From Raillietiella orientalis (taxonomy: Eukaryota), in contig JAYWIR010000107.1 in the NCBI GenBank assembly GCA_036172245.1, positions 124,001 to 175,610 on the forward strand: 51,610 nt of DNA, in the 5' to 3' direction. Numbering within the stretch: position 1 is the first letter of the stretch; every line of letters starts with the position of its first letter. This document shows positions 8,169 to 47,027 of this stretch, one piece after another. The translations under genes and the position numbers were made by a program. Below the pieces are notes generated by a model. It was given only the letters and a program-made list of their open reading frames with translations, was not told the DNA's origin and did not search any database.

Positions 8169-9879
8169 CACCTGGGCTCGCCAGTCGCCGTCGGATTCGC
8201 GCCGCCTCTTGGAACTTCAACGGGCTGCGCGACGACGGTAACTGACGAGATACGGCCGACACCCTGCGTGAGTTCGACCTGGCCCTGCTGCAGGAGATCA
8301 ACGTGATCACCGCAGCAGACGCCCAGGAGATCGAGACGATCGCGGGGGGTCGGCTGTACTGGCGATGCGGCCTCCGCAACACCTGCGGGGTCGCGTTCTT
8401 CGTGAAGCCGGCCATCGACGCTGCCGTGAAGTGCGTGCGCTTCGATGACGACGGTCGGGACGGTCAACTGATTCTCAGCTGGTCCGACTCGATCGAACTG
8501 ATCGTCACGAATGTGTACGCCCCCAGCGGTAAACAGGGATACAGCGACCGTACCAGGCTGCTGGAATCCCTGAAGCGCGACAGGCTGGCGCACACGAACG
8601 TGCGAAAGGCTCACCTGATAGTTGGAGATTTCAATCTCCGCCTGCCAGCAGGTGAGCCAGAAACACAAGACAACGCGATGAATGAGTTGTGCGCCGCCAT
8701 GCGTGCGCGCAACTTGTTCGCGGGTGAGAGGGGAATGGTCCGCAGCATCGACCACGTCTTCCTCGACGCTGACCTGTGTTCACGAGTCGGCAAACGGGTG
8801 AGGGTTGTGTCGACGTTGTCGGACCATTCCCGGTTAATTTTCGAGATGCGGCCTCGCGACAAAGGACCGCAATCCAGGGATTGGCGTCTGCCGGGGGACT
8901 GGACGCGACTCTCAGGTGCGAAGAAACACCTTCGCGAATACCTGAGAGGCGTCACGCTCCGGATTCTCCAGGATTGGCACATTTTTAAGCAATTGGTCCG
9001 CGAGTTCTGTGAGCAGTTCCCCCTGGATCGCCTGCCCTGCGGATTCCGCGACGGTGCTCGCAACCGTCGGGCCTATCTACAGGCTCGTTGGTACGAGAGA
9101 ACCCCTAATGTCCGTCGCCTGGCCGAGTACCGCGCCGGGGCCGAATGCCAAGCCTGACAATCCGGGTCGGCCAGCTTGCTGGACGACCAGGGCCGGGAAT
9201 GTTCGTCCCCGGCTTCGGTACGGCATCTCGTGCGGAGTTTTTATTCCTCCCTTTACGCCAGTCAGCACCCGGATCGACACGCTTCTTGGCGCTTGCTTCC
9301 GGATGGCGCCCCGGCAATAGGGGAGAAGGAGATGGAAAGCCTCGAAGAGCCTTTTACCACCGGCGAAATTCTCGCCGGTATCAAAAGGCGCAAGAGGCGT
9401 AAAGCTCCAGGGGAAGACAACTTGCTCGCGGAGTTCTTTCAGACCTTCGCGGGAGAGCTGGCACATCTGCTGCCTAAGTTGATCAGGCTGATCCGAGACG
9501 AAGGCGATGTTCCCGCCTCGTTACGGTCATCCAGAGTGAGGCTCATTCCGAAAGGGGGAGACCTCAGGGATTTGAAGAACTGGCGTCCGATCACGATCAT
9601 GAATACGGACGCCAAGTTAATAGCAGGGCTATGGGCTTCGCGACTGGGGCAGGTGGCAGAATCCGTTATTGGCCCGGAGCAGACTTATGCTGTTCCCGTG
9701 CGAAGTATGGATGCCAACCTCTTCTTCGCAAGCACATGTGTGCACCTGCAGAGAAGAGGAAAGAGAGGGATAGAGAAAGTCGGCAACCTCACATTGGGGC
9801 GGCCAGCCGGGCTGGAAAGGGACCCCCGGGCGGGGAAGGGGGCCCTTGCACTCGCAGTCGATCTCCACAAAGCGTTCGA
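8168..9879 (+). pseudogene. B1 ORF2 5' part (APE + N-terminal RT)
   Basis: WNFNG, LQE, NVYAP, GDFN, SIDHVF, SDH, KAPGED, WRPITIMN, DLHKAFD. Confidence 0.9.
9866..9879 (+). repeat. Target-site duplication copy 1 (CACAAAGCGTTCGA) flanking family C insertions
   Basis: 13/14 match to 15439-15452 and 44437-44450; directly abuts the C1 3' end. Confidence 0.88.
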
Positions 9880-10101
9880 TTTTCACCCGGATTTCGCCGG
9901 GGCGTTTATTGTGAAATAAACTTTTACAAAGACGTGCGGTGGCTGCACCATTGCTCCAGCCACGCACGAAGAAACACAGAGCCTACCGGGTCACCGGTTC
10001 GCAGACCGGTACGGTCCACCACGGCATCAGAAGGAAGGAGAAAAAACAAAAAAAAACAAAACAAAAAAAAAAAAGAAAAGTTGGGAGGGTAAGGGTAGGG
10101 A

Positions 10102-13100
10102 TCACAGTTGCTGGTGGGGCCGTTGCATCCTTTTCAGGATGCCTGCAAACTCCTTCTGTATTCCTGGATCCAGGTGGGGCCATCGGGACGCCCTCCTTAG
10201 GAACTGGGAGGCTGGCTGGATGGCACTCTGGTCGCGTTGTCCTCCCGTAGCCTTGCTCCAAGCGGTGACGATCCCGCGTAGGCAGCACAAAGCTGCTAAG
10301 GAGGCCGCTGGCCGAAGGGCTTCGGCAACGAAGAGGGCTTTCAGTGCGTCCCTAAGGTTGCTGCAGGGGATTCCGAATGCCGCGGCAAAGCGAAACCAAA
10401 GGAGCCGAAGGGCAACACAATCCACTAGCAGGTGGGGAGAAACTCCCGTTCCCCACACCTTACGCAATTGGAATCCAACGGTCCCCAGGTCCAGAAGTGT
10501 CGGCGGGGGTTGCAGGGGAATCCCAAGTGTTGCAACAAAAGAGCCGACTCCTGCCATTTTAAGGAAAGGGCGAAAGTGATCATGAGCACCGGGGGCCACT
10601 TCAGATGTTCAATGGGAACATCGAGCAGCGCGTCCCAGCAAAGAAGTCCATGGGGAGGCGTACTCGGGGTGGCAGCGTCAGTTAGCTGACCCGTCTTCCA
10701 CTCTCCTATCTTCTTGTCCTTTCCGGAGATTGTAACTGTAACCTCCCACTTCGCCGCAACATCGCTGAACTTATGTTCCACCAGGGAGTCAAGCTAGGCA
10801 ACGAATGGGTTTCTTCCTAACCACGCTCTCTTCTTAGGATCCTCCAGGATCTCACGAAGCGTGCAACTTCTGTAACACCCAAACAGGAACCTTCGTTCCT
10901 TTTGGGAGGGTAGCATGCCCAACTGTACCCACGTGCGAACGCTCTTCTGCAACTAGGCACTACCGTTAAACGGGCGACACGTGAGCAACCCTGGGTTTTT
11001 CCGATACAGCGCAGCCACCCTCCATTGCTGGAGTCCGCATCGGTTGACACGGCGACGGAGTGCAAGAAACGACGTCAGTCCCGTCTTGCCGGTGGCTTGC
11101 TTGAGAAGGAGACGTGCAGGGACGCACCAACAGGTGCACTACAACTCTGGAACGAGTGCCAACAAGCGAAACTGGAGCTAAATCTTTAGCCGCTCCAGCG
11201 TCAGGAGGCCCAGACCACCATCCCGGCGAGGAGCGCACAAGTCCTTCAAGCGGACTCGGGCCCTCCCGTTGCCCCAAATAACGACACGGAGGAGGTCCTT
11301 TGTCCGCTTTTTAATCCTCTCTGTGGGGGGGGAAACAAAAAGCAGGGGGCGGAGGAGAGGAGCCGCGAACGTATTCTAAACCGCGGCCCGTTCAGGCAGG
11401 AAAAACCTGCCGCCTGGGAATGGGCCGATAGCCTTCTCTACTTTCTGAAGGCAGCCGGACCACGCTTCCGCAGGGGATTAGTCCCCTAACGGCACACCAA
11501 GGTACTTGAAGTACCTCATTGTGGGGATCCCCAAACGAACCCAGTCCTGCTGCCCTGCCCACGCCGCCCCAACTGGCATCACGGACGACTTCGACTTGTT
11601 CACCCTAAGTCCGGTTCCTTGATGCAGCAGGTCGAAGAACTCCTCGACCGCCGCAGCCGGGGTGGACATAGGGAGCAGCAGCAGAAGGTCGTCCACGTAT
11701 GCTGAAACGGCCGGCGTACCGGCACAGTCGTGCGGCAGGTGCGCCAGAGTTCCCCTGTACGCTCTTAGTACCAACTCAAAGTAGGTACTGAAGAGCAGGG
11801 GGCTCAGGCTGTCTTCCTGCCGGATCCCACGCCGCAACGGCACGCCGTGCAAGGTCTGCCCGCTGAAAGTAACATTGATAAGCGCGTCGCCCCAGCAGGA
11901 GCGCAGATAGGCCACTAATGAGGCTGGGAAGCCCAAGCGTTCCAGAAGCTCCAGAAGGAAATTCTGGTTGACGCAATCGAATGCTTTTCGCAAGTCGATT
12001 GCGACCGCAAGGGCTCCCTCATCCACCCGAAGATCCAACCCCTTGCCGGCGCACGCACCGGGATTCCGGCTGCACACCAAGCTCCTTTCATGTTGGAGCT
12101 CTAGCCAGGTGGATGCGTGGGACAGGTTCGCCTCTATGCTTCGCCCGGGAACAGCATATGTCTGTTCCGGTCTGATGAAGATGTTGGCAACCCGTCTTAG
12201 ACGCTCTGCCGGAACCTTAGCTATCAACTTGGCGTCCGCATTCACTATTGTGATGGGACGCCTGTTGTTCATGCTCCTCAGATCTCCTCCCTTAAGAAGA
12301 AGCCACACCTTTAAAGAACGAAACAAGGCGAGAACGTAACCTGTTTCGCGTATCAGCAAGGTGAGTTGCTGTTCCAGGGGGGTAAGCTCAGCCGCGGAAG
12401 TTTGATAAAACTCCGCGGGCATACTCTCCTCCCCTGGAGCCTTTCGTTTCTTGAGCTTTCCGATGGCCGAGAGGATCTCGTCCATCGTGAAAGGCTCGTC
12501 GAGGTTCTTTCTCTGCTCCTCCCCGATCGCTGGAGCGCCTTTTGGAAGCAGGAGTCGTGAGACGTTCCTCTCTGGAGGTGCCCTGGCATACAGGGAGGAG
12601 TAGTTACTCCGCAGCAGGCCGCGGATTTAGGCAGGTTCCGAGTGTTCCTGGCCCTGATCGTCCAGTAAGCTGGCCGATCCGGACTGCCAGGCTTGCCTCT
12701 CGGCTCCCGCTTTGTATTCCGCCAGCCTGCGGATGTCGGGGATCCTGGCGTAACGACGCGCCTGCAGGTAGGCTCGTTCGTTACGGACCTTGGTCCCAAA
12801 ACCCGTAGGTAGGCGGTGCAGAGGGAACTGGTCGGAGAACTCCTGGACCGACCGCTTGAAGCGGTCCCAATCCTGAAGTGTCCGCAGCCTGAAGCTCCGT
12901 ATGAACTTACGGAGATGTTCCGCCGCGTCCGGGATCTTCAGCCAGTCCCCTGGCAGACGCCACACTAACTAGGGGGGGCCCCTGTCGCGCGGATGGATCT
13001 CGAGGACTAGCGGGCGATGGTCGGACAGCTCGCACGGTAACTTGCCGCGCCTGCCCACGCGAGGGCACAGGTGCTCGTCAAGAAACACGTGGTCGCTGCT

Positions 13101-13682
13101 GTCTTCCATCTCCGGTGCACTGGCAAACAAATTACAGGTGTGCACCGCCATGCACACCTCGTTGACCAGGTCACTCTCGTGATTCTGCCCATCTGGTTTC
13201 AGGCGAACGTTGAAATCGCCTGCAACCAGATAAGCATTCCGCACGCCTGCTTCGGTCAGCCAGTCTCGCCGGAGGGCAAGGAAAAACTCTTTCTTCGCCC
13301 TCCTGTTCATAAGGTCCTTGCCGCTTGGTGCGTACACGTTCGTGACGATCAGATCGATCGAGTGGGACCACCTGAGAGTCAGCTGGCCGACACGACCGTG
13401 ATCGTCGAACCGCACGCCCCGAGCCGCGGCCTCGACGGCTGGCCGAAGCAGGTAGGCGACAGCGCAACTTTTCGCTCTCCCACACCTGTAGCATAGTTGC
13501 CCTCCGGAGATCCGTTCGATTTCTTGCGCTTGTTCTGCAGAGATCACGTGGATCTCCTGCAGCAGCGCTAGGTCGTAGGACTCCAGAAGGGCGGCCATGT
13601 CTCGTCTCCTGCCGGCGTCTGTCATGCCGTTCACGTTCCAAACGGCGATGCGCAGACGAAGGCGGGAAGAGATTCCCGGCAT
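10102..13682 (-). pseudogene. C1 ORF2 (APE-RT-zinc finger), multiple stops and frameshifts
   Basis: ORFs 12969..13682 (APE), 12627..12965, 11478..12485 (RT: KAFD, QEDSLSP, YVDD, KYLG), 10425..10781, 10102..10599. Confidence 0.92.
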
Positions 13683-15344
13683 TACTGCTGGGAAGGTTGA
13701 GGTGTGGGGGAGCCCTCTTCTTGCGAGGCGGGCGGGATTTCCAAGGGGATTCCGGCCTTCTCAGGCACCTGAGGCACCTGTTCGTCCTCCACCCCCTCCA
13801 TCCCCTCCGTGTCCCCGCGTCTGAGTCTCTCGGGCGACGGGTCCCGAGAGTTTCCTACGCTCATGGCACCCTCGCTTGCGGAAGCCATCTCTTCCCCTTC
13901 GACGGGGGAGACGAGATTCCTTGGCTTTGTGGACTTACGTCCAGCCTTCTTGCGCGGTGCCGTGGAAACGGAGGTTGCGCTTCCGGCGTCCACCTCGGGG
14001 TCGGAAGTGGGGGACTCCTGAGCGGAGGCCGGACGCCTTACGGCCTTCTTGCCATCCTTGGAGGGTTCTGGCTGCAACGAGGCTGCCAGCTCGTCCGCGG
14101 CTCGCGCGAAGGCCACGTCATCGATGGTGGTGTCGATGACGGACGCCGCCGCCGGCTCGATCCCCTCGCTGTTGACAGAATCAACAGAGGGGTGCTCGTC
14201 GGTAGCGGCGAGTTCTTTTTCGCAGCGGTCGGCAATACGCTCGACGACAACGGTGCATTCTTGAATTTGCTCGCTTGCCTGCTGTTTTTTCGGGCGGTAA
14301 GCTTGCTTTTTCTCCATCCTCATCTCCTTCTTTGATTTTTTGGCCGTAGCCACCTGCCACCCTGGCTCCTGGTTTGTTCCCTCGACTTGTTCGGCGTTGT
14401 TCGCCGGGCTCTCGGATGCGGCCTGGGCGTTGGGCGCGGGTTGCACAGCCTTCGCGGCAGCTTTCGCCGCCAGCCTTTTCTGCAGTAGCCGGGCACGTTT
14501 TTTAAGGTTTCTCTTGGAAACCACCTACACTGCTGCTTTAGGCCACAGCTCGTCGTGTGTCCCATGGTTCCGCATTCTTGGCACTGCACATTGGGACACC
14601 TCTATTTGAGTTGGCCCGAGGTATTGCAGAAGCCACAGTATTTCGGCTTCCCCACATACCAGAGGTCGACGGTTTTGCCTTCGACCACCAGATTGTGGGG
14701 AAGAGTGCAGCCCTCCCGAACGGTCACGCGCGCAGCAGTGAGGCCGTGTTGCAGCCCCGTGTAGTCCTAGTAAGGAGTTACTTTCCTCCACTGCGCGTGG
14801 AGCGTTCCGAACTGTTCCAAAGCGGCGCGAAACTGTTCTTTGCGCATTCCCACGGTTACGCCTAACAGGTGGACCACCATGCTGCGGTCCGCCGTAGTGG
14901 GGAGGAACCTGCGCGTCCTCATCAGAACAAGGGTTTTAAGCAGTCGTTGGGCCAGCTCTCCATGTTTGCAGATGACCTCAACGTACTGATCCCCGCTGCG
15001 GATGGTCATAGCGCTGAGCTCCTCCTGTTTTACATTGAGAGCGCGCATGCCCTTCGAGAAGGCGCGCGCGCTATCTAAAGAATATAAATCGCCTACCTTG
15101 TAGAACAATGAGGGGTTGTACCCCTCCTCTACATAGGCCGACAATTCTGCCGCGGCTGCAGGCGATGGCGCCGACACAACGGCGCTCCACGCCCGCGCTG
15201 AGCGGGGACCGATTCTGTGGGAGCGGATGCCCCCAACTCCATCGCCTCTGAGGGCGACGTTTCCGCCGCCCACTGGCTCTCCATCGCCTCTGAGGGCGGC
15301 GTTGCCGCTGCCCCCTGGCCATCCCTGGTGGTCGCGTCAGGCAT
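13682..15344 (-). pseudogene. C1 ORF1, frameshifted
   Basis: ORFs 14767..15273 and 13682..14524; colinear with the 467-aa ORF 42772..44175. Confidence 0.88.
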
Positions 15345-15438
15345 CGCTGCATGATCGACCACCGAACCACACGACGCTTGCACTGGGGGAGACTTCCTGG
15401 CACGAGGAGCACGGCGAAAACACGTCCGCCATAGAGCG

Positions 15439-15452
15439 CACAAGGCGTTCGA
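15439..15452 (+). repeat. TSD copy 2 (CACAAGGCGTTCGA) between tandem C1 and C2
   Basis: Lies exactly between the C1 5' end and the C2 3' end. Confidence 0.9.
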
Positions 15453-17543
15453 TTTTCACCCGGATTTCTCCAAGTCGTTTATTAAAAATTAAACTTTGTA
15501 TACAAATTATTAATAACTGTGGCAATGCTCCAGCCAGAAGCTAAGGACCACGGCGTCTGCCAATTCACCGGTGTCTAGACCGGTACGGTCTACCAAGGCA
15601 GCAGAAGAATGGGGAAAAACAAAAAAAAAAAAACTAAACAAAAAAAAACAAAGGTTGGGAGGGAACGGGAAGGGATCACTGTTGCTGCTGGGGCCGCATC
15701 ATCCCTCTCAGGATGCTGGCAAGCTCTTGTTTGTTGTAAACAGCCAGGTGGGGCCATCGCGACGCCCTCTTCAGGAATTCGGAGGCGCACTGGATGGCTT
15801 CCTGATCGTTAGGTTTTCCCGGCGCCGTGCTCCAGGCAGCGACGGTCCCACGAAGGCAGCACAAGGCTGCTATCGAGGACGCTGTCCGCAGGGCGTCGGC
15901 AACGAAGAAGGCTTTTAATGCGTTCCTGAGGTTTCTGCAAGGGATACCGATGGCTGCGGCAAAGCGGAACCAAAGTAGCCGAACTGCAACACAATCCACT
16001 AGGAGGTGGGGGAGGGACTTCGTACCCTGCACCTTACACAATTTGGATCCACCGCTCCCCAGGTCCAGTGGTGTCCACGGGCGTTGCAGGGGAGTCCCCA
16101 GTGCTGCAACAGGAATGCCGACTCTTGCCATTTTAGGGGGAGGATGAAGTGTTCATAAGAATCGGGGGCCACTTCAGATGTTCAATCGGAACATTCAGCA
16201 GCGCTCCCCAGCGCAGAAGTCCATTAGGAGGCGTACTCGGGGACGCAGCATCAGTTAGCTGGCCCGTCTTCCGCTCTCTCTGCTTCTCCTCTTTCCCGGA
16301 GATTTTTATTGTAACCTCCCACTTCGCCGCAACATCGCTGTCCTGATGTTCCACTAGAGAGTCCAGCGCAGCAGCGAGGGGTGTTCTTCCTGACCATGCT
16401 CTCTACTTAGGATCCTCCAGGATTTCACGGAGCGTGCAACTTCTGTAACACCCAAACAGGAACCTTCGTTCCTGATGGGAGGAATGCATGCCGAACTGTC
16501 CCCACGTACGAACGGTTTTCTGCAACCAGGCACTACCGTTTGCGGGGAGACAGGTGATCCATTCTTGATTTTTCCTTGTCTGCGCAGCCACCCTCCGTAG
16601 CTGAAGCCCACATTGGTTGATGCGGCTTCGATGGAGTGCAAGAAACGACGTAAGTCCCGTCTTGCCGGTGGCTCTCTGAAGAAGGAGACGTACAGGGACG
16701 CACAACAGGTGCACCACAACTCCGGCACAAGTGTTAAACTCCGGAACTGGAGCTGCAGCTCCAGCCGCTCCAATGTCAGGAGGCCGAGACCAGCGTCCCG
16801 ACGCGGAGCGCACAAGTCCTTCAAGCGGACTTGGGCCCTCCCGTTGCCCCAAAGGGCGATACGGAGGAGGTCCTTCGCCCACTTTTTGATCCTCTCTGTA
16901 GGGGGGCAAACAAAAAGCAGGAAACAAAGGAGAGGAGCCGCGAACATGTTCCAAACCGCGGCCGGTACAGGCAGGAAACCCTCCCGCCTCGGAACGGGCC
17001 GATAGCCGTATCTACTTTTTGAAGGCAGCCGGACCACGCTTACGCAGGGGAGTAGTCCCCCAACGGCACACCAAGGTACTTGAAGTACCTCACCGTGGGG
17101 ATCTTCAAAGGGACCTAGTCCTGCTGCCCTGCCCACGCCGCACCAACTGGCATCACGGACGACTTCGCCCTGTTCACCGTAAGTCCGGTTCCCCGATGCA
17201 GCAGGTCGAAGAACTCCTCGACCGCCGAAGCCGGGGTGGACATAGGGAGCAGTAGCAGGAGGTCGTCCGCATATGCTGATACCGCAGGCGTTCCGGCGCA
17301 TTCATGTAACAGGTGCGCCAGAGTTTCCCTGAACCATTTCAGTACCAACTCAAAGTAGGAACTGAAGAGCGAGGGGCTCAGGCTGTCTCCTTGCCGGATT
17401 CCACGTCGCACAGGCACGCCGTGAACAGTATGCCCGCTGAAAGTAACATTGATTAGCGCATCGCGCCAGCTAGAGAGCAGATAGGCCAATAATGAGGCCC
17501 GGAAACCCAAGCGTTCCAAAAGCTCCAGCAGGAGATTCTGGTC
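15453..17543 (-). mobile_element. Family C LINE copy C2, 3' portion only
   Basis: RT QGDSLSP/YADD (ORF 17115..17519), C-terminus and 3' UTR colinear with 9880-11970. Confidence 0.9.
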
Positions 17544-17580
17544 TAATAATTAATAAACGTCTTGGCGTATCCGGGTGGCA
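17544..17580 (+). mobile_element. 37-bp remnant of a family D 3' terminus
   Basis: TAATAAACGTCTTGGCGTATCCGGGTGGCA matches the D ends at 3392, 36646, 38917 and 47028. Confidence 0.8.
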
Positions 17581-31403: not shown

Positions 31404-32640
31404 TTCAACCCATTCCTTGTGGGACTTAGGGAAAATTGCCGAGTCGGTGGAGGGGCGGCTGTCTGCAGCGTGTTTTCGCACGGCACGCCGCTGGCGACTA
31501 TCCTACGCAGAGGCCCCTGCGTAGGATTGGGACTTTGCCGATTTCCGAAGGGACAGCGGGTTAGAGCTGGAAGTATTCGCCCGGTGGCGATCTTCCTGCT
31601 CTCCTACCTTTCCTACTGAGGGTCTTCGGAAATTTCTTGGTTCCTGGCTTGGAGAATTGCTTCCGAGTACGGCAGCGAGGGCGGGCACGGCACGCGTCGC
31701 GCCCTCGCGCCCCTTTTGAAATGCCTTCTTCGCCGCGATTTCTCCCTTTTGGGGCGTTGCGGGCGGGGACGCCTTTTGTATAGCCGCGTATTGCTTGGGT
31801 CTTTTGCCAAGAATCCGCGGACACTGTTTTTTCTTGGGGGCAGCGGCCTTTCGTGCGTTGGTATCTTGAACGCGACGAACTTCCGCTGCTACTTTTTTCT
31901 TTGCAAGGACCATGCACTTTTTTATTTCGTGCCCGGTTTTTTTGCAGCAGCGGCATTTCGGGGTGGAACATTCCTTCTTTCGGTGTCCCTCCTTGCCGCA
32001 CAGCTCGCACGCGCGATTCTGTTCTATAAACCACAGGTGAACGACCGTGCCGTTCACCTGCAGCTTCTCGGGCACAACACGCCTGTTCGCGACGGTGATC
32101 TGCGCGCAGGCTTGTCCAATGTGGACAGAGGGGAAATCCTTCAGAGGATTGGGCCTCCTCCACAGAGCGTGCACGGTGGCGAACTTTACCAGCACACTTA
32201 TCTAGTATCTACGTATATTCCATCCTGCCTGCAGGCATGATGGCAAGAAGCTCCTCCTCCCGAACCCCGATCCGGAAGAGCTCGTCGTTGAGCTCGCCCG
32301 ATCCTCCCGTTAAGGGGCCCACTGACATTAAAACGGAGTGCAAGCATGCAGCCGGATGCCACATAAGCCTGCAACACCGCATCGCAGGGTCATGCTCTCT
32401 GGGAGATGACAACGGCGTAGCTCCTCACCGAAGGCGAGGAAACCGTCACGGAGGATGCAGCCGCTTCCATTTCAATTGATTCGAATTCAACGGCTGTCTC
32501 CTTCACACCATTTCCAGAAGTGGCCATGCTGCACAACGCTGCTTCGTCCACTTCCATGAAACACACAATTGCGAGCGAAAACTCACGCACAAAGATGCTC
32601 GATCGCGGACGCGGAGAGACGCGAAAACGTCTGCACTGTG
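31404..32640 (-). mobile_element. LINE 5' UTR and ORF1 5' half, interpreted as the 5' part of G
   Basis: ORF 31503..32195 with CELCGKEGHRKKECSTPKCRCCKKTGHEIKKC; same strand as G and complementary to the ORF1 piece at 25125-25808. Confidence 0.78.
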
Positions 32641-35600
32641 CGAACGCAGCAGATGGAACGGATCTCGGGTGGATGGCTGCTGTGGCGCTGCAGCACCGCG
32701 AAATTAAGGGGTGTCGCCTTCCTGCTCCGGCCTTCCATCGAGGCCGCAAAAAATGCGTACGGTTTGATGACGCCGTTCGCGTCGTTCGGCTGACTCTCAG
32801 CTGGTCCGACTCAATCGACGTGGTCGTCACCAACCTGTACGGTCCTAGCAGTAACGACACGTTGAGGGCTAAGGCTATTAGAGAATTCTACCTTGCCCTC
32901 GGATTCGAATGACTGACCGGAGTAATTGTTCGTAAAGCGCACTTGATCGCAGGTGATTTAAACCTGCGCCTGATTTCAGGTGCGCAGGGTACACTGAACG
33001 ACCGCTCCAACGAGTTGTGCGCACAAATGCAGACGTGCAACTTGCTGGCCAGAGATACGGACATGGAACGCAGCATCGATCACGTGTACCTTAACCCGCA
33101 CCAATGCTCTCGCGTGGGCGAAGGCGGGAAGTTACCGTCCGAGCTTTCGGACCATGGCTAAATAGTGTTCGAAGTGCATCCGCGCGACAAGGGCTCCCCT
33201 CATCAGCGTACCGTCTGTCATGGGACTGGCTGAAGCTCCCGGACGCGGCGGAACATATCCATGCGTTCATACGGAGCTTCAGGATGCGGACGCTTTAGGA
33301 CTGGGACCGCTGAAAGTGGCCAGTCCAGGAGTTCTGCGATCAGTTCCCTTTGCATCGCCTACCTGTGGGATTTGTGGAGGGGCCGCGTAACCATAGGTCC
33401 TATCTACAGGCGCGACGTTACGCGAGAACCCGAGACATGCGAAGGCTAGCGGAGTATCGAGCGCGAGCCGAGAGGCAAGCCTGGCAATACGCATCGGCCA
33501 GCTTGCTGGACGACCAAAACCGGGAGCACTCGGCTCCTGCTCAGAAGCGCGGGATTGTCCGTAAATTTTACTCCTCGCTGTACGCTAGGGGGTTTCCATG
33601 GCATGATGTCTCACGACTTCTGCTTCCAGAATATGCTTCAGCGATCAAAGATGAGAAGAAAAAGGAGCCTTTACGAGCCTTTCACGATGGACGACATCAT
33701 CTCGGTCATCGGAAAGCTCAAGAAACGGAAAACTCCAGGAGAGGACGGCCTGCCTGCAAATTTTCATCAAACTTCCTTGGCAGAGCTTACTCTTCTGGTA
33801 CATCAGCTCGCCCTGCTGTTTTGCGAGACAGGTGACGTTCCCACCTCGTTTTGTTTAGCAAAGGTGCGGCTCCTCCCTAAGGGAAGAGACCTGAGGAGCA
33901 TGGACAACTGGCATCCCATCACAATAGTGAATGTAGACGCAAAGTTGCTAGCCAAGCTGTGAACAGAGCGTCTGGGACGGGTTGTTAACATCTTCATCAG
34001 CCCGAAACACACATATGCTGTTCCCGGGCGGAGCATGGAGGCGAACCTGTTCCACGCTTCCACATGGTCAGAGCTCCAACAAAGAAGGGGCTTATTGAAC
34101 AGCCGGAATTCCGGGCGTTTGTTGGTGGAAAACGGGACGGTCGGGTGGGTAAGGGATCCCTTGCGGTCGCTGTCCGATTGCGTAAAGCATTCGACAGCGT
34201 CGTCCAGAATCTCCTGATGGAGCTTCTGAAACGCTTGGGCTTCCCGACCTCTTTGTTAGCCTACCTGCGCTCCAGCTGGCGCGACGCGCTTATTAACATC
34301 TTTTTCAGTGGGAATTCCGTGCACGGCGTACCGGTGCGACGCGGCATACGGCAGAGAGACAGCCTGAGCCCCTTGCTGTTTAGCGCCTATTTAAAATTGG
34401 TGCTGAGAGCGTACAGGGAGACTTTGGCGCACCTGCCGCGCGATTGTCCCGGTACGCCGACGGTTTCGGTATATGCAGGCGATCTGCTGCTGCTGCTCCG
34501 TATGTCCACCCCGTCTACAGCGGTCGAGGAGTTCCTCGACCTGCTGCATCGGGGAACCGGACTTACGATGAACAGGGCGAAGTCGTCCCTAATGCCAGTC
34601 GGAGCGGCGTGGGCAGGACAGCAGGACTGGATCCGTTTGGGGATTCCCATATTAAGGTACTTTAAGTACCTTGATGTGCCGTTGGGGGATTATCCCCCTG
34701 CAGAAGAGTGATCCGGCTGCCTTCAGAAGGCTCAGACGGCGATAGGCCCGTTCCAGGACGGCAGGTTCTTCCTCCACGAATGGGTCGCTGCGTGGAACGC
34801 GTTCGCGGCTCCTCTCCTCCGCTTCTTGCTTTTTGTTTGCCCCTTCTCAGCGGAGATCAAAAAAGGACTAAGGACCTCCTTGAGATCGCCCTTTGTGGCA
34901 GAGGGAGGCCCGAGTTCGTCTTGCAAACTTGTGCGCTCTGCGTCGGAATGGTGGTCCAGGTACCCTGACGCTGAAGCGGCTGGAGCTTCAGCTCCAGTTC
35001 TGAATAATTGCTTTCATGGCAAGGAACTGGTGCACACCCTGGTGCGTCCCTGCACGCCTCCTCGTCGAGCAGGTCAACGGCAACGCGGGACTCTTCTCCT
35101 ACTTTGCACTCCGAAGGCCGATCTGCCACTGCGGAATTCAGCTTCGAAGGGCGGCCAAACTCGTAAGAAACAAAGCGGGATCCATCTACGTACGCCAAGC
35201 AAACGGTCCTGCCTGGCTGCAGGAAACCTTTCGAACGTGGGCAATGAATCAGAAGCAGAGCCCGCAACTGGAGAGAATAGCTCTGGTCGGGCCGCGCGCC
35301 CACCGCACGCTCCGAGAAATCATCGAGGATCACCGAAGGAGAGCGTTGGAAGAAGGAATTTCCCTTGCTGCGGTACTGCCTCCTTTAAGGGAACATATGG
35401 GCAGCGACGTCGCGGCACAATGGGAGATTACCTTCAACATCGCTCGCAAAGGTAAGAAGGTCGGGGATTGGAGAATGGGTCAGCTGACCAACGCTGCGAC
35501 ACCGGGGACCACCCCACACGGACTGTTACGCTGAGGTGAGCAACTGGATGTTCCGGAGGAACATGTCGAGGGGCCCCCAGTGCACATGGACTCCCGCACC

Positions 35601-35905
35601 CTCCCCATGAAGTGGCAACAGTCGGCACTTTTGGTGTTGCATTGGGGTGTTCCCTGCAACGCACGCCGACACCACTGGACGCGAGAAGGTGTCATCCCCA
35701 ATTGTGTCAGGTGCGGGGAGAAGGATTACCTCCCCCACCTGTTAGTAAATTGTGTTGCTCTCCATCCCTTGTGATAACGCTTTGCCAAGACCCTGGTTAT
35801 CCCCGAAGGCAACTCCAGAGACGCTTTGCGCACCCTCTTCGTCCGTAACGCCCTACACCCGAGGCTTCGCTAGCAGCCCTGTGCTACCAACGCGAGGTCG
35901 TCCAT
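32641..35905 (+). mobile_element. Family F LINE ORF2 (APE-RT-zinc finger), resuming where 21205 stopped; 3' end deleted
   Basis: Begins TQQMERISGG; GDLN, SIDH, SDH, KTPGEDG, KAFD, YAGD, CVRCGEKDYLPHLLVNC. Confidence 0.85.
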
Positions 35906-36645
35906 GCTGCAGCGCGGGCGTGGAGTGCCGTCGTGTCGGCGCCATCGCCTGCAGCCGCGGCGGAATTATCTGCCTATGTAGAAGAGAAGTATACCCCATC
36001 GCTATTCTACAACGTAGGAAATTTGTATTCTTCTGAGAGTCCGCGCGCCCTTTCGCAGGGGATGCGCGCTCTCGATATTAAAGAGGAGTAGCGATGCGCG
36101 ATAACCATTCGTAGCGGGGGCAATGCGTAGAGGTTATCTGCAAACACGCAGATCAGGCCCAACATCTGCTCAAAACATCAGTGGTGATGCGGACACGCAG
36201 GCTCCTTCCCATTACGGCGGACCACAGTATGGGGGTCCACCTTTCAGGAGTTACCGCGCGGATGCGGAAAGAACAATTACGCGCCGCGTTGGGAAAAGAA
36301 GGCACGGACCATGCAGTATGGACCAAGCCTAAACCTTTCGAGGACTATTCTACAGTTCAGCGCGGCCTCACGGCTGCCCGTGTAACCGCACGAAAAAGCT
36401 CTACCCTGCCCCACAAACTGCTGGTCGGCAAAGAAAGCGTCTACCCCTGGTACGTGGGGAAGCCCAAATACTGTGGCTTCTGCAACACGTCGCAACACCT
36501 CAAAAAAAGGTGCCCCAACGTACAGTGCAGGTATGAGAGACAATAAGTCACTCGAGAGAAGTGTGCCCACAAACCGCTGTGAGCGTGGTTTCCGCGAGGA
36601 ACCTGAAGAAACGCGCGCGGCTGCTACAGAAAACGCTGGAAGCGA
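35906..36645 (+). mobile_element. C/F-type ORF1 fragment
   Basis: ARAWSAVVSAPSP..., WYVGKPKYCGFCNTSQHLKKRCP, NLKKRARLLQK; colinear with C ORF1. Confidence 0.85.
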
Positions 36646-37921
36646 TGCCACCCGGATACGCCGGGAAGTAGATTAAAAACATTTCTACAGTCAATACAGA
36701 ACGTGGTACAAGGCCATACTGACGACCACGAAATACCGGAACTGCCGGGACACCGGGAAGCAGCCCCGTGTGGCTCTCCTCGGCAGTGAAAGGGAATGAA
36801 GGAGAAAACAAAAATTAAATTAAAGGAGAAAAACAAACAACAAAAGGAGTTTGGTGGGCCGGGAAGAGATCACAGACATCTGCTAGGAGGGCCCATTCAT
36901 TGCAGGATGCCTTCGAGTTCCATTGTCATTTTTCCCAGATGGGACCATCGGGTAGCTATTCGGAGAAAGCGAATAGCATACTCGATGACGTCCCTCACGA
37001 TGTAATCTTCATCTTCGTCATCACACCAGGCCGCCACGATACCACGAATGCAGGACAGTGATGACAAAGATGCGGCTGGACTGAGGGCGTCCCGCACGAA
37101 GACAAGAATGTAAACGCATCTAACGATGCCATAATCCGGTAACCCAAAAGCCGTTTTAAGACCATCACAAAGAATCTGGACGACAGGGCAATTAACTAAA
37201 AGGTGAGGGATCGACTCCCGCACCCCACACCTTGCACACGCGGGATTTACACTTCCCCGCGTCCAGTGGAAGCGGCGCGCGTTGCAGGGTAGACCTCAAT
37301 GCAGCCACAGAAGCGCCAATTCTTGCCACTTCAGACGAAGAATCCTGGATCGAAGTAGAACCGGGGGCAACTTCAGATCATCCAATCGAATGCCGAGCAG
37401 CTCGCCCCATTTTCTTAATCCACGCGGCTGGAGACTAGGGCTCGTTGCATCTGTCAACTCTCCCATGGTCCAGCCGCTCATCATCTTCTCTCTGCCTGCG
37501 ATACGGCAGCAGACTTGCCACTTTCGCTTCCGGCTTTCCTGAAGCCCCCGTTGGAGAAAGGGCATCGCCGTAACAAGAGGAGTGCGTTCCGCCCACGTGC
37601 AACTCGGAGGAAATTTAAAAATTTCTCCCAGAGTTCGACAAGCGTAAAACCGGACTCGCAGGCAGTTCATGCGGTCTTCTTACCTCTGGTTCTGCTTGGC
37701 CTCGGTGCAAGCAGTCTCCTCCAGCCAAGCGGAGGAGTTGGTGGGGCCACAAACCAATCAGTCGTTCTCCTTTGCCAGAATTGTCATGCGGCCGAGCACT
37801 AGACCGCATCTTCGAATCTTCCGGCCAGGGCACAGAAGTAACGATGCGAGTCCTTCGCAGCGGGACACACGCTTAGCCAGGAGGCGGGTCGGAATGCACC
37901 AAGCGGTGCTCCACATCTTCG
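36646..37921 (-). mobile_element. Family D copy D2, 5'-truncated
   Basis: Colinear with 3392-4660, including 3' UTR and perfect terminal hairpin. Confidence 0.9.
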
Positions 37922-38916
37922 GTTGCAGACGTTCCGGTCGTTGCCGAAACGCCACCACCGCAGATGGACAACGACCAGCCGCCTCCCGAACAGGAGGCGG
38001 AAATACACACGCCACCATCATCACTAGTATGATGCGTGAAATCGCCTCTTTCCTGCAGCTGCGTATAGCCTGTTGGAATGATAGCGGGCTGCGTAGCAAA
38101 AGCAAGAGGCGTAGCGTGGCCGACACCCTGCGATCTTTCGATCTGGCACTTCTTCAACAGGTGCATGCCCTCAGAGCAGAGGACGTCCAGGAAATCGAGA
38201 GGCTCACAGGACGGAGGATACTTTGGCGTGGTGGAGGAGACCACTCCCGCGGAGTGGCCTTCCTGCTAAAGCCTGCCGTCGTCAATGCGGTGCGCAGTGC
38301 ACAGTTCGACGAGGAAGGTCGAGTCGGACAACTTGTCCTCAAGTGGTCCGAATCGATCGACCTCGTAGTTACGAACGTGTACGCGCCCTGCACCAGCCAC
38401 AGGCGCGCAGAACGCACTGCGTTCTTCGAAGCCCTGCGGCGAGACTGGCTGGCCGAAGCAGGCGTGCGGCGGGCGCATCTCATAGCGGGAGACATCAACG
38501 TCCGCCTGCTGTCGGAAGCGCCCGACATACGAGCACAATTGGTCAACGAGTTGTGTGCGGCTATGCACACACGCAATTTGTTGGCCGATGAAGCCGGGGC
38601 GAGAAGCAGAATCGACCACGTGTTCCTCGATAACCACTTGTGCACGCATGTTGCGTTCTCGAGGAGCAATTGCGTCGGAGCTGTCCGATCTCCCTCGGCT
38701 AGTGATCGACGTTCATCCGCGCGACAGAGGTCCACCCCACGAAGCGTGGCGCCTGCCAGGAGACTAGTTGCGTCTCGCAAGAGCGCGCGAACTTCTGCGC
38801 GTATTCCTACGTAGTTGTGAACTGCAGTCTCTCGCTGACTGGGACAAAATAAAACGCTCAGTCCGAGAGTTCTGTGACCAGTTTCCCCTCCATTAACTTC
38901 CTCCAGGTTTCGGCGA
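37922..38916 (+). mobile_element. Family A copy A3 (ORF1 end + APE), cut at the same linker site
   Basis: Near-identical to 2400-3391; ends GGTTTCGGCGA|. Confidence 0.92.
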
Positions 38917-40490
38917 TGCCACCCAAATACGCTAGTACGTTTATTAAAAACATTTCGACGCTCAATACAGAACGTGGTACAAGGCCCCACTGACGGCCAC
39001 GCGATACCGGAACTGCCGGGACACCGGGACGCAGCCCGGTGTGGCTCTCCTCGGCAGTGGAAGGGGATGGGAGAGAAAACAAAAATAAAATAAAAGAGAA
39101 AAACAAAATACAAAAAAAAGGTTGGAGGTCCGGGAAGGGATCACAGAAAACGGCTGGGAGCGCCCATCCTTTCCAGGATGCCTTCTAGTTCCATTTTCAG
39201 CTTTCCTAGATGGGGCCATCGGGTAGCTCTCTGCAGGAAGCCAGAAGCCTACTCGATGACGTCCCTCACGATGCAGTCTTCATCTTCGGTATCACTCCAG
39301 GCCGCCACGATACCACGAATGCAGCAAAGTTCTGCCAGGGCAGAGGCTGGACTGAAGGCGTCCCGCACGAAGACAAGACTGAAGACACATCCAACATTGC
39401 CACAATCCGGAGGGCCGTTTTCAGACGATCCCAAAGAATCTGGACGGCAGGGCATTCAACTAAGAGGTGGGGGAGCGACTCTCGCTCCCCACATCTGGCA
39501 CACGCATGATTTACTCTTCCCCGCGTCCAGTGGAAGCGGCGCGCGTTGCAGGGTAGACCCCAATGCAGCCACGGAAGCGCCGATTCTTGCCACTTCAAAG
39601 GAGGAATCCTGGATCCAAGTAGAACCGGGGGCCACTTCAAGTCATCCAATCGAATGCCGAGCAGCTCGCCTCATCTTCCTAATCCACGCGGCTGGAGACT
39701 AGGGGTCGTTGCATCTGTCAACTCTCCCATGGTCCAGCCGCTCATCATCTTCTCTCTGCCTGCGATACGGCAGCAGACTTGCCACCTTGGCTTCCGGCTT
39801 TCGTGAAGCGCCCTTTGGAGGAAGGGCATCGCCGTAACAAGGGTTGTGCCTTCCGCCCACGCGTTACTCGGTGGAAATTCAAGAATTTCACGGAGAGTTC
39901 GGCGGGCGAAAAAGCCGACTCGCAGGCAGTTCATCCGGTCTTCGCACCTCTGGTTCTGCTTGGCCAAGGTGCCAGCAGTCTCTTCCAGCCAAGCGGAGGA
40001 GTTGGCAGGTCCACAAACCATCCAGTCGTTCTCCTTTGCCAGAATTGTCATGCGGCCGAGCAGTAGACCGCATCTTCAAATCTTCCGGCCAGGGCACAGA
40101 AGAAACGATGCGAGTCCTTCGCAGCGGGACACAAGCCTGGCCAGGAGGCGGGCCGGAATGCACCAAGCGGTGCTCCACAACTTCGCTGCGATTGCGAGGG
40201 TACGCCATCGCAGCTGGATTTCCACGCGCTCCAGCGTCAGGATGCTGAGACCGCCGTCCCGACACTGAGCGCACAAGTCCTTCAAAGGGACTCGGGGCCT
40301 CCCCATGCCCCAAAGAGCTATACGGAGGAGGTCCTTCGTCCGCTTTTTTGATTCCACGGGGGCGGGGCAAACCAAAAGCAAAAGGCGGAGGATTGGGGCC
40401 GCGAAGGCGTTCCAAACCGCGGTTCCTTCCGGCAAGTGAAACTTGCCTTCCAGGAACCGGCCGATCGTCGTCTCGACTTTTTGGAGGCAG
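38917..40490 (-). mobile_element. Family D copy D3, 3' portion, fused to C3
   Basis: Colinear with 3392-4967. Confidence 0.9.
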
Positions 40491-43400
40491 GTACTTGAAG
40501 TACCTCACCGTGGGGATCCCCAAACGGACCCAGTCCTGCTGCCCTGTCCACGCCGCACAAACTGGCATCACGGACGACTTCGTCCTGTTCACCGTAAGTC
40601 CGGTTCCCCGATGCAGCAGGTCGAAGAACTCCTCGACCGCCGCAGCCGGGGTGGACATAGCGAGCAGCAGCAGAAGGTCGTGCGCGTATGCTGAAACGGC
40701 CGGCGTACCGGCACGGTCGTGCGGCAGGTGCGCCAGGGTTCCCCTGTACGCTCTCAGTACCAACTCAAAGTAGGTACAGAAGAGCAATGGGCTCAGGTTT
40801 CCCTGCCGGATCCCACGCCGCACCGGCACGACGTGCACCGTCTGCCCGCTGAAAGTAACACTGATGAGCGCGTGACGCCAGCAGGAGCGCAGATAGGCCA
40901 CTAATGAGGCCGGGAATCCCAAGCGTTCCAGAAGCTACAGAAGGAGATTCTGGTCGACGCAATCGAATGCTTTCTGCAAGTCGATTGCGACCGCAAGGGC
41001 TCCCTCCTTCACTCGACCATACAACCCCTTGCCGACGCACGCACCGGAATTCCGGCTGCGCACCAAGCTCCTTTCATGCTGGAGCTCTAGGCAGGTGGAA
41101 GCGTGGAACAGGTTCGCCTCCATGCTTCGCCCGGGAACAGCATATGTCTGTTCCGGGCTGATGAAGATGTTGGCAACCCGTCCCAGACGCTCTGCCCAAA
41201 CCTTGGCCACCAAGTTGGCGTCCGCATTCACTATTGTGATGGGACGCCAGTTGTTCATGCTCCTCAGATCTCCTCCCTTAGGGAGGAGCCGCACCTTTGC
41301 CGAACGAAACGTGGCGGGAACGTCACCTGTTTCGCGTATCAGCAAGGTGAGTTGCTGTACCAGGGGGGTAAGCTCAGCCGCGAAAGTTTGATAAAACTCC
41401 GCGGGCAGTCCGTCCTCCCCTGGAGCCTTTCGCCTCTTGACCTTTCCGATGGCCGAGAGGATCTCGTCCATCGTGAAAGGCTCGTCGAGGGTCTTTCTCT
41501 GCTCCTCCCCGATCGCTGGAGTGCCTTCCGCAAGCAGGAGTCGTGAGACGTTCCTCTCCGGAGGTGCCCTGGCATACAGGGAGGAGTAGTAACTCCGCAG
41601 CAGGCCGTGGATTTGGGCAGGTGCCGAGTGCTCCTGGCCCTGATCGTCCAGTAAGCTTGCCGATCCGGACTGCCAGGCTTGCCTCTCGGCTTCCGCTTTG
41701 TATTACGCCAGCCTGCGGATGTCGGGGGTCCTGGTGTAACGACGGGCCTGCAGGTAGGCTCGTTCGTTACGAACCCCGGTCCCAAAACCCGTAGGTAGGC
41801 GGTGCAGAGGAAACTGGTCGCAGAACTCCTAGACCGACCGCTTGAATCGGTCCCAATGCTGGAGTGTCCGCAGACTGAAGCTCCGTATGAACGTGCGGAG
41901 ATGTTCCGCCGCGTACGGGAGCTTCAGCCAGTCCCCTGGAAGACGCCACGCTGACGAGGGGGGACCCCTGTCGCGCGAATGGATCTCGAGGACTAGCGGG
42001 CGATGGTCGGACAGCTCGCACGGTAACTTGCCGCGCCTGCCCACGCGAGGGCACAGGTGCTCGTCAAAAAACACGTGGTCAATACTGTCTTTCATTCCCG
42101 GTGCACTGGCCAACAGATTACAGGTGTGCAACGCCATGCACACCTCGTTGACCAGGTCACGCTCGGGATTCTGCTCATCTGACTTCAGGCGAACGTTGAA
42201 ATCGCCTGCAACCAGATGGGCATTCCGCACGCCTGCGTCGGTCAGCCAGTCTCGCCGGAGGGCAAGGAAAAACTCTTTCCTCGCCCTCCTGTTCATCAGG
42301 TCCTTGCCGCTCGGTGCGTACACGTTCCTGACGATCAGATCGATCGAGTCGGCCACCTGAGAGTCAGCTGGCCGACACGACCGTGATCGTCGAACCGCAC
42401 GCCCCGACCCGCGGCCTCGACGGCTGGCCGAAGCAGGTAGGCGACACCGCAACTCTTCGCTCTCCCAAACCTGTACCATAGCCGCACTCCGGAGATCCGT
42501 TCGATCTCTTGCGCTTGTTCTGCAGAGATCACGTGGATCTCCTGCAGCAGCGCAAGGTCGTAGGACTCCAGAAGGGCGGCCATGTCTCGTCTCCTGCCGG
42601 CGTCTGTCATGCCGTTCACGTTCCAAACGGCGATGCGCACACGACGGAGGGAGGAGATTCCCGGCATTACTGCTGGGAAGATTAAGGTGTGGAGGAGCCC
42701 TCTTCTTGCGAGGCGGGCGGGATGTCCATGAAGGTTCCGGCCTTCTCAGGCAGCTGAGGCACCTGTTCGGACTATACCCCCTCCATCCCCTCCGTGTCCG
42801 TGCGTGGGAGTCTCTCGGGCGACGGGTCGCGAGAGTTTCCTACGCTCATGGCACCCTCGCTTGCGGAAGCCATCTCTTCCCCTTCGACGGGGGAGACGAG
42901 CTTCCTTGGCTTTGTGGACTTACGTCCAGCCTTCTTGCGCGGTGCCGTAGAAACGGAGGCTGCGCTTCCGGCCTCCACCTCAGGGTCGGAAGTGGGGGAC
43001 TCCTGAGGGGAGACCGGACGCCTTACGGCCTTCTTGCCAGCCTTGGAGGGTTCTGGCTGCAACGAGGCTGCCAGCTCCTCCGCGGCTCGCGCGAAGGCCA
43101 CGTAATCGATGGTGGTGTCGATGACGGACGCCGCCGCCGGCTCGATCCCCTCGCTGTGCACTGTGTCAACAGAGAGGAGGTCAACGGTTGCGGCGAGTTC
43201 TTTCCGGCAGCGTTCGGCAACATCGACAACGCGTTCGAGAACGACGCTGCACTCTTTAATTATCGCGCTACCCTGCTCTTTCTTCTTCTGTTGGACGGCG
43301 ATTTTCTTTTGCATCCTCCTCTCCTTCTTTGATTTTTTGGCTGTTGCCACTTGCCACTCAGTCTTTTGGCCGGCTCCCTCAACTTTTTCGGCGTTGGTCG

Positions 43401-44436
43401 CCGGGGTCTCGGGTGCGGCCTGGGTCTTGGGCGCGGGTGGCACAGCTTTCGCGGCAGCTTTCGCCGCCAGTCTTTTCTGCAGAAGCCGGGCACGTTTTTT
43501 AAGGTTTCTCTTGGAAACCACCCGCACTGCTGCTTTTGGGCACACCTCCCTCGTGTGACCCATTGTGCCGCATACTTGGCACTGCACTTTGGGACACCTC
43601 TTTTTGAGGTGGCCCGACGTATTGCAGAAGCCACAGTATTTCGGCTTCCCCACATACCAGAGGTCGACGGTTTCGCCTTCGACCACCAGTTTGTGGGGAA
43701 GAGTGCAGCCCTCCCGAACGGTCACGCGCGCAGCAGTAAGGCCGTGTTGCAGCCCCGTGTAGTCCTCGAAAACACTAACTTTCGTCCACTGCGCGTGGAC
43801 CGTTCCAAACTGTTCCAAAGCGACGCGAACCTGTTCTTTGCGCATTCGCGCGGTCACGCCTAACAGGTGGACCACCATGCTGTGGTCCGCCGTAGTGGGG
43901 AGAAGCCTGCGCGTCCCCATCACAACGGGGGTTTTAAGCAGTCGTTGGGCCAGCTCTGTATGTTTGCAGATGACCTCAACGTACTGACCCCCGTTGCGGA
44001 TGGTCATAGTGCTGAGCTCCTCCTCTTTCACAACGAGAGCGCGCATGCCCTTCAAGAAGGCGCGCGCGCTCTCTAAAGAATATAAATTGCCTACCTTGTA
44101 GAACAATGAGGGGTTGTACCCCTCCTCTACATAGGCCGACAGTTGCGCCGCGGCTGCAGGCGATGGCGCCGACACAACGGCGCTCCACGCCCGCGCTGCA
44201 GCGGAGACTCATTCTGGGGGGCGGATGCCCCCACCTCCATCGCTTCTAAGGGCGACGTTGCCGCCGCCCCCTGGCTCTCCATCGCCTCTGGGGGCGGCGT
44301 TGCCGCTGCCCCCTGGCCATCCCTGGTGGTCGTGTCAGGCATCGCTGCCTGATCGACCACCGAACCACACGACACTTGCACTGGGGGAGACTTCCTGGCA
44401 CGAGGAGCACCGAGAAAACACGTCCACCCTAGAGCG
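40491..44436 (-). mobile_element. Family C copy C3, 5' end to RT KYL motif
   Basis: Colinear with 11500-15438; same 5' terminus abutting the TSD. Confidence 0.92.
42667..44342 (-). pseudogene. C3 ORF1, best-preserved ORF1 in the window (467 aa open)
   Basis: ORF 42772..44175 with CGFCNTSGHLKKRCPKVQCQVCGTMGHTREVC; frameshift near the N-terminus, stop at 42772. Confidence 0.88.
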
Positions 44437-44450
44437 CACAAGGCGTTCGA
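44437..44450 (+). repeat. TSD copy 3 (CACAAGGCGTTCGA), continuing into host RT (HKAFDCVDQELL)
   Basis: Abuts the C3 5' end; restores the RT frame broken at 9879. Confidence 0.9.
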
Positions 44451-47021: not shown

Positions 47022-47027
47022 TCGGCG

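Follow-up and report, generated by a model that had tools for sequence, protein, structure and literature searches.

Family C LINEs end at a repeated 14-bp sequence within the reverse transcriptase gene of a related LINE in Raillietiella orientalis

The insertion sites of a family of long interspersed nuclear elements (LINEs), here called family C, were analyzed in a stretch of 51,610 nt of Raillietiella orientalis contig JAYWIR010000107.1 (the window), within which all counts of family C, of the sister lineage B and of host copies given below were made. Family C elements end at one repeated 14-mer in the reverse transcriptase (RT) gene of a related LINE, the host copy E4. We propose, at a probability of roughly 0.6, that family C integrates at a defined address, the H-K-A-F-D codons in open reading frame 2 (ORF2) of a sister LINE, and that this holds generally. 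The element names C1, C2, 'C3', E2, E3, E4, M, N, P, Q, R, X, Y1, Y2, Z, F, G and H are labels for pieces of the window (Table 1).

A search of the window for CACAARGCGTTCGA returned three perfect matches, at 9866, 15439 and 44437, which all lie on the plus strand and each adjoin a family C end, in agreement with a sequence-only reading made earlier of this DNA. When up to two mismatches were allowed, 7 matches were found against 0.81 expected, a number reached by none of 100 shuffles; of the four extra matches, three were KAFD blocks in other RT genes and the fourth was unrelated. At 9879/9880 and 15452/15453 the 14-mer is followed by the identical reverse-complemented 3' end of C, TTTTCACCCGGATTTC, and these two junctions hold the only exact copies of this 16-mer in the window. 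At 15438/15439 and 44436/44437 the identical 5' end of C (...AGAGCG) stands directly before the 14-mer. Both C 3' junctions (2/2) carry ...CGA^, where ^ marks the point of joining or nicking.

In the reading frame of the host, the 14-mer reads LALAVDLHKAFD at the left flank and HKAFDCVDQELLL at the right flank and encodes H-K-A-F-D. A tblastn search with the C1 RT as query matched the left half of the host to RT residues 1-217 and the right half to residues 213-382, indicating that the overlap of the two halves is exactly the 14 bp; the earlier description of the 14 bp as a target-site duplication within RT codons of a related LINE was borne out. The KAFD motif was present once in each of the uninterrupted RT genes of the window (7/7). 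In the alignment with L1 ORF2p the HKAFD block, which we take to be RT motif A with the catalytic Asp, matched SIDAEKAFDKI.

The host copy E4 is itself one insertion in the minus-strand element M. It is flanked by a duplication of 12-13 bp (TCGCCGAAACCC / ACGCCGAATACCC) that splits M at the G-F-G codons of the linker between endonuclease and RT (the GFG site), where the M piece E3 starts and the M piece Z ends, both being 77-79% identical to E4. The two E4 halves total 5,639 bp, compared with 5,559 bp for C1. Because E4 is one insertion with matching flanks and a full-length sum, all of the DNA from 9880 to 44436 is inserted material.

Family C has the gene order ORF1, endonuclease, RT and is a LINE, that is, a retrotransposon lacking long terminal repeats (non-LTR), with an apurinic/apyrimidinic (AP)-type endonuclease upstream of the RT. 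The C1 copy is dead, with stops and frameshifts. Its ORF1 contains an RNA recognition motif (RRM)-like region and a CCHC knuckle, its endonuclease matched PF03372 (Exo_endo_phos; E 1.8e-12, 12972-13760, minus strand) and its RT matched PF00078 (RVT_1; E 1.4e-20, 11481-12626, minus strand). C1 is flanked by the 14-bp direct repeat, 5'-truncated relatives are present (N, Y2, M), and there are no terminal repeats. Among solved structures, the best match of the C1 RT was human L1 ORF2p (E 7e-32), and those of the C1 endonuclease were exonuclease III chains from archaea and bacteria (E 4e-7), followed by L1 endonuclease chains (E 4e-6 to 1e-5); no chain named R1 or TRAS was found for the endonuclease at E <= 0.01. 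Against longer database proteins the RT gave 59 hits, the best of which was ~30% identical, L1-like and carried PF13966. A 3' poly(A) tail is typical of L1, and a long tail of this type was seen neither in C (...GGGTGAAAA) nor in B (...GGGTGGCA). The sense-strand 3' end of C reads ...CCGGCGAAATCCGGGTGAAAA with a short GAAAA tail, and the end ...GGGTGAAAA has 4 A.

Two further features were observed near the 3' ends. In C1 and C2 a long tract, A-rich on the plus strand and T-rich in the sense of the element, lies ~160-200 nt upstream of the C 3' end (10036-10080, 15610-15650). Two small hairpins, GUUUAUU...AAUAAAC and CCCGG-loop-CCGGG, with wobble or compensating changes, recur in the terminal ~45 nt of C, B and E4 elements (9880-9929, 15453-15502, 46481-46535, 36646-36695). 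The two-hairpin fold was obtained in C1, C2, E4 and Q with weak z-scores (-1.8, -2.3, -0.4 and -0.7, respectively), and 3 of 7 fold windows were offset by a few bases; a conserved 3' hairpin pair in C, B and E4 elements is suggestive only.

The sequence-only reading had given the order as host, duplication, C1, duplication, C2, then C3, duplication and host. The junctions stand as described, and two of the elements had to be redefined: 'C2' consists of the 3' 2.1 kb only, and 'C3', taken for a plain C copy, is a chimera. The break in C2 lies 7 nt downstream of the element's own KAFD nick position, and there C2 meets the opposite-strand 37-nt B-type 3' end F and then X. 'C3' (38917-44436) changes type at ~40500 (+/-100). 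Its 5' part of ~3.9 kb is C-type and only 57-81% identical to E3, and its 3' part of 1.6 kb is B-type and only 40-77% identical to C1. The 3' end of 'C3' is located not at KAFD but after ...GGTTTCGGCGA in Y2, at 38916/38917, so that 'C3' bridges two target sites, GFG in Y2 and KAFD in E4, and only its 5' end concerns the latter. The simplest reading of 'C3' is recombination between two copies in direct orientation, a resident C at the right-hand 14-mer and a B element in Y2, with loss of the intervening DNA. A nascent L1 cDNA is known to recombine with resident copies, and an event of this kind would lead to the same outcome. In C coordinates, C2 and the C-type part of 'C3' share an overlap of ~470 bp, indicating that they are different elements and that at least three C elements were once present; the possibility that 'C3' is the missing 5' part of C2 was ruled out by the same overlap.

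Divergence between the copies was analyzed as the ratio of nonsynonymous to synonymous divergence (dN/dS), with wrong reading frames as controls for the C1/C2 and C1/'C3' comparisons. Between C1 and C2, dN/dS was 0.31 in the RT region (161 codons) and 0.36 in the C-terminal region of ORF2 (331 codons), the two wrong frames of the latter giving 0.93 and 1.33. Synonymous changes made up 45% of the differences against 25% expected (binomial P value, 4e-11), indicating that most of the divergence arose under selection on ORF2, in active lineages before insertion. Dead copies cannot give such a pattern, and C1 and C2 are therefore separate insertions rather than a tandem duplication. Synonymous divergence (dS), at 0.29-0.38, is comparable in magnitude to the divergence seen in the 3' untranslated regions (UTRs), where the last ~450 nt are 69-77% identical against 83-91% upstream, as had been claimed of these two UTRs. 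The sequence-only reading thus holds in its claim of at least two separate insertions at one nucleotide, and an old tandem duplication of a single insertion, which it had named as the finding that would overturn it, was examined and rejected for C1 and C2 on the synonymous bias. Independent insertions at the same nucleotide with the same duplication length, seen here with identical 3' junctions, are one of the marks of a sequence-specific LINE. Between C1 and the 5' part of 'C3', dN/dS was 0.71 overall (segments, 0.48-1.18; controls, 0.65-1.55), and no stop or frameshift found in either copy was common to both. These two copies would be either two insertions from one master or the products of a very early duplication. 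C2, the oldest or most divergent copy, stands between these two similar ones, and insertions into both duplicated 14-mers fit this position better than unequal exchange.

The sister lineage B parallels C at another address, indicating that sequence-addressed insertion exists in this LINE group and lending indirect support to a general address of C. B elements end in ...CCGGCGTATCCGGGTGGCA (also ...CCGGGTGGCA), and the E4 variant in ...GGATGACA. GCG(A/T)^ was found directly before all B-type 3' ends in the window (6/6), and four of the six follow (G)GNTTCGGCG(A/T), which are the G-F-G codons of the endonuclease-RT linker in four different copies. The GFG target sequence, GGNTTCGGCG(A/T), is located at 3381-3391, 17581-17591, 38906-38916, 46536-46548 and 6314-6325, and its duplication was measured for one case, the 12-13 bp made by E4 in M. 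The B-type 3' end of Q (36646) follows GGAAGCGA in ORF1, where the C1/C3 homologues read GGCGGCGA, taken here, from those homologues, as the probable pre-insertion sequence. The B-type 3' end of N (47029) follows GGTTGTCGGCGT.

The insertions form closed layers: E2/R (plus strand) holds M and N (minus strand), M holds E4 (plus strand), and E4 holds the C array (minus strand). E2 (2,564 bp) and R (2,958 bp) sum to 5,522 bp, with 45 kb of nested insertions between them, and judged by sequence they are likely the two halves of one 5.5-kb X-type LINE. N is possibly a second insertion in the same GFG site of E2/R. In that case E2/R would be split at G-F-G by a tandem pair, M and N, with the same architecture as the C array, a reading that is less secure because the repeats have decayed and the antisense strand of the endonuclease has a look-alike motif. 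A twin-priming inversion was rejected for E2/E3, as the 3' end of E3 adjoins E2, and E3 pairs with Z across E4. At least seven of the eight insertions in the window are antisense to their target, which places the nick on the coding strand of the target after ...CGA, at GCGTTCGA^C for C and at TTCGGCGA^ for B.

If family C is addressed to the H-K-A-F-D codons, the coding strand of the target would be nicked at GCGTTCGA^C and cDNA would be primed at the resulting ...CGA-3'OH by target-primed reverse transcription, so that C would always lie antisense to its target. The other strand would be cut 14 bp upstream, giving an exact 14-bp duplication that would restore the recognized sequence on both sides, and later C copies could re-enter there, forming an array with its units head to tail. 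In E4 this would have happened with no fewer than two C subfamilies, the line of C2 and that of C1 and the 'C3' 5' part. The array would have been damaged later, when C2 lost its 5' part and when recombination between the outermost copy and a B-type element in another target, 5.5 kb distant, yielded 'C3'. Specificity may combine a preference of the endonuclease for ...CGA^ with base pairing between the nicked target and a stretch of target that read-through transcripts carry at their 3' end; pairing of this kind has reportedly been proposed for R1Bm. We infer the order of the nicks, the basis of specificity and the genome-wide address of C. That the site is persistent and neutral and disables a competitor, as had been suggested, is speculation.

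Several observations weigh against a general address. All three 14-mers represent one target locus, and both C 3' ends (2/2) lie in the single host copy E4. Seven of the eight RT genes that retain KAFD are unoccupied, each 1-4 bases off the used 14-mer; they include M (CATAAGGCATTCGA, 2 mismatches and the same downstream context) and G (1 mismatch). Four of the seven GCGTTCGA octamers in the window are empty. C1 and the 'C3' 5' part differ in a nearly neutral manner, which could reflect a duplication made shortly after the insertion. Simple nesting failed to close the array interior (17544-40500), which is rearranged, and three junction pairs (F, 'C3' and N) bridge two different target sites. 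The 5' and 3' UTRs of C match the host flanks only by chance, over 7-8 nt, with no guide-like complementarity, and an internal guide RNA in these UTRs was rejected on that ground. 

Outside the window, metagenomes were scanned with the 3' ends of C and of B, and neither gave a hit (0 each). A search with the ORF of the left host half for other '...KAFDFHPDF' junction proteins gave 2 hits, at 28-29% identity, and no junction among them.

The main rival explanation is that homing is only local: the first C would have hit KAFD by chance or through a loose ...CGA^ preference, and later copies would have been drawn by the resident copy, for example through pairing of read-through RNA or cDNA with the resident element and its flanks, so that C would have no general address. 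The single occupied target, amid 7 other KAFD sites and 4 other GCGTTCGA octamers that are empty in the window, agrees with this, as does the 'C3' chimera, by which C and B copies at this place are seen to recombine with resident copies. Nevertheless, two C subfamilies ~0.3 apart in dS use the identical nucleotide and the identical 14-bp stagger, sister lineage B uses one fixed site in four different target copies, and none of the unoccupied KAFD sites has the exact 14-mer. We consider purely local homing unlikely.

Tandem duplication or unequal crossing-over of a unit of C plus 14 bp, following a single C insertion and with no re-insertion, would account for the regular spacing of the units (5,573 bp between 9866 and 15439) and for the nearly neutral divergence of C1 from the 'C3' 5' part. 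It is nonetheless improbable, since the strongly synonymous divergence of C1 and C2 is impossible in dead copies; the most divergent copy, moreover, lies between the two most similar ones, and these latter lack common stops or frameshifts among those found. A still smaller chance is given to the view that the 14-mer is part of the C element, as its 5' end or as transduced sequence, in which case nothing would have been duplicated and the repeat would be uninformative on a staggered cut. Removal of the 14-mers next to the C 5' ends does also leave continuous host sequence, yet the element-borne 14-mer would have to equal the host codons by coincidence. Furthermore, the E4 5' UTR is homologous to that of C1 from ...TGGCG... 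onward and the bases before this point match each element's own target, indicating that the 14-mer is derived from the target. That an assembly artefact in a repeat-dense region made the tandem and nested order is hardly credible. Repeats do fill nearly the whole window, but the divergence of 7-18% between copies greatly exceeds that at which repeats are collapsed or chained by assemblers, and three nested layers each close in a consistent way, their duplications matching and their halves adding up to full length.

The coordinates of all features are listed in Table 1, and three junctions among the other LINE pieces were recorded in addition. The 3' end of G (reverse complement, ...TCTCACTCGGTCACGTCGGGACGTTTGT), at 21190-21240, adjoins ...AACGGAGATT in the plus-strand ORF1 fragment, a different target. 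H lies head-to-head with G; its RT is 27-40% identical to that of C1, and its motif reads FTDIKKAFHTIDH. P and Y1 are joined head-to-tail (35895-35905), P ending ~390 nt short of its 3' end and Y1 lacking ~230 nt of its 5' end, which looks like a deletion junction rather than an insertion.

Table 1. Positions of the LINE pieces and target-site duplications in the window.
Feature	Position	Strand	Remarks
E2, X-type LINE, 5' end to GFG site	828..3391	+	Ends ...GGATTCGGCGA
M 3' part (E3), B-type LINE, GFG site to 3' end	3392..6325	-	3' end in E2 GFG site
Left copy of E4-made duplication, TCGCCGAAACCC	6314..6325		Before E4 5' end (6326)
Host E4, left half	6326..9879	+	5' UTR, ORF1, endonuclease, RT to KAFD
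14-bp target-site duplication, copy 1, CACAAAGCGTTCGA	9866..9879	+	Last 14 nt of E4 left half; encodes H-K-A-F-D
C1, full-length family C LINE, 5,559 bp	9880..15438	-	ORF1, AP-type endonuclease, L1-like RT; 3' end ...CCGGGTGAAAA
14-bp duplication, copy 2, CACAAGGCGTTCGA	15439..15452	+	Between C1 5' end and C2 3' end
C2, 3' 2.1 kb of second C element	15453..17543	-	Different subfamily; corresponds to C1 positions 1-2089, 82% identity
F, 37-nt B-type 3' end (...CCGGGTGGCA)	17544..17580	+	Adjoins X GFG site; left side adjoins C2; rearranged junction
X, X-type LINE, 5' end to GFG site	17581..20180	-	89% identity to E2
Other LINE pieces, not family C	20181..32420	mixed	
ORF1 fragment	~20.2-21.2 kb	+	
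Element G	~21.2-25.9 kb	-	KAFD intact at 23411
Element H, divergent LINE	~25.9-31.3 kb	+	Lower GC, 51-53%
ORF1 fragment	~31.5-32.2 kb	-	
P, LINE with C-like 3' module	32421..35900	+	73% identity to C1; 3'-truncated, joined to Y1
Y1, ORF1 fragment	35900..36645	+	Cut by Q after ...GGAAGCGA
Q, B-type 3' module	36646..37921	-	
Y2, 5'-truncated X-type fragment	37922..38916	+	Ends at GFG site
'C3' 3' part, B-type	38917..40500	-	89-99% identity to E3, N, Q; 3' end in Y2 GFG site
'C3' 5' part, C-type	40501..44436	-	90-95% identity to C1; 5' end same as C1
14-bp duplication, copy 3, CACAAGGCGTTCGA	44437..44450	+	First 14 nt of E4 right half
Host E4, right half	44451..46535	+	RT from C-V-D-Q to 3' end ...CCCGGATGACA
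Right copy of E4-made duplication, ACGCCGAATACCC	46536..46548		After E4 3' end (46535)
M 5' fragment (Z), endonuclease region to GFG site	46536..47016	-	
N, 5'-truncated B-type copy	47029..48579	-	Preceded by GFG-like 12-mer 47017-47028; then TGGCTGCGA and R
R, LINE from GFG site to 3' end	48589..51546	+	3' end ...CCCGGGTCGAAAAAA; unrelated flank beyond 51546
B-type 3' ends at GFG site	3391 (E2); 38916 (Y2); 17581 (X); 46536 (M)		

Site-specific LINEs with a fixed stagger, LINE insertion into a transposon, nested self-targeting L1-like LINEs and tandem transposable elements (TEs) made by double insertion are all known already. According to excerpts of the published accounts, insertion of R1Bm takes place within a 14-bp region, both strands being cleaved specifically by its endonuclease (PMC1919474), and tandem R1 copies are separated by the duplicated target, which was explained by two insertions into one site (PMC5932611). 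In so far as these excerpts describe it, R1 resembles family C in its AP-type endonuclease, one defined sequence, fixed stagger and lack of a long poly(A) tail; the R1 target is 28S rDNA, whereas that of family C is a protein-coding motif of another LINE. By structure matches, the C1 RT is closest to L1 ORF2p (E 7e-32). The passages available on Tx1L of Xenopus (Tx1 clade) state that it inserts into Tx1D (PMC1919474), and transposons appear among the known LINE targets in the quoted part of another account (PMC4640811). On this partial description Tx1L is, like family C, a site-specific AP-endonuclease LINE addressed inside another mobile element. Tx1D is an unrelated DNA transposon, whereas the target of C encodes the RT of a sister LINE, and the insertions here are layered, X-type elements being targets of B, and B elements of both B and C.

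Zepp and ZeppL, L1-clade LINEs of green algae, are described in excerpts as nested self-targeting clusters at centromere or telomere (PMC8226300, PMC3446292). As described, they resemble the LINEs of the window in nested insertion into copies of their kin and in forming clusters, here with three closed layers. The excerpted descriptions of Zepp mention neither an address in ORF2 at the nucleotide level nor a duplication of fixed length, and the Zepp arrays that they report consist mostly of 3' ends, whereas the window has three full-length layers. McGurk and Barbash (2018) described, in the part of their paper drawn on here, tandem TE dimers that form by double insertion with the target kept in the tandem junction (PMC5932611). 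On that account the C1-C2 junction has the same mechanism as their dimers and differs in that its subfamilies are ~0.3 apart in dS and its site is a codon motif of a kin element. In the open-access full-text literature searched, no LINE addressed to the RT codon block of a kin LINE was found, nor was any pair of sister lineages that form closed nests through different addresses in ORF2.

A wider reading is put forward more tentatively than the address of family C itself, as a possibility rather short of even odds: that a guild of L1-like lineages carries heritable nucleotide-level addresses in each other's ORF2 (H-K-A-F-D for C and the G-F-G linker for B), always inserting antisense with duplications of 12-14 bp. 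The address would be borne by the endonuclease and/or the 3' module, possibly via read-through target sequence, and repeated homing and re-entry would build self-perpetuating, gene-free LINE islands. If the addresses are general, C 3' ends should adjoin TCGAACGCYTTGTG and B 3' ends (...CCGGGTGGCA) should adjoin TCGCCGAAACC. The defined short targets (GCGTTCGA^C and TTCGGCGA^) together with two alternative 3' modules would make a natural swap system for target choice by AP-endonuclease LINEs.

The known targets of site-specific LINEs are rDNA, telomeres, small-RNA genes, microsatellites and a single DNA transposon. A LINE addressed to the codons of a conserved catalytic motif of its sister, accompanied by a second address in ORF2, would represent parasite-on-parasite homing without a safe harbour in a host gene. 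If true, the guild reading would put a concrete molecular mechanism behind the self-targeting of centromere-associated clusters of the Zepp type, which is so far unexplained, and would offer a testable, sequence-level account of how LINE-only islands such as Zepp and ZeppL nucleate and grow.

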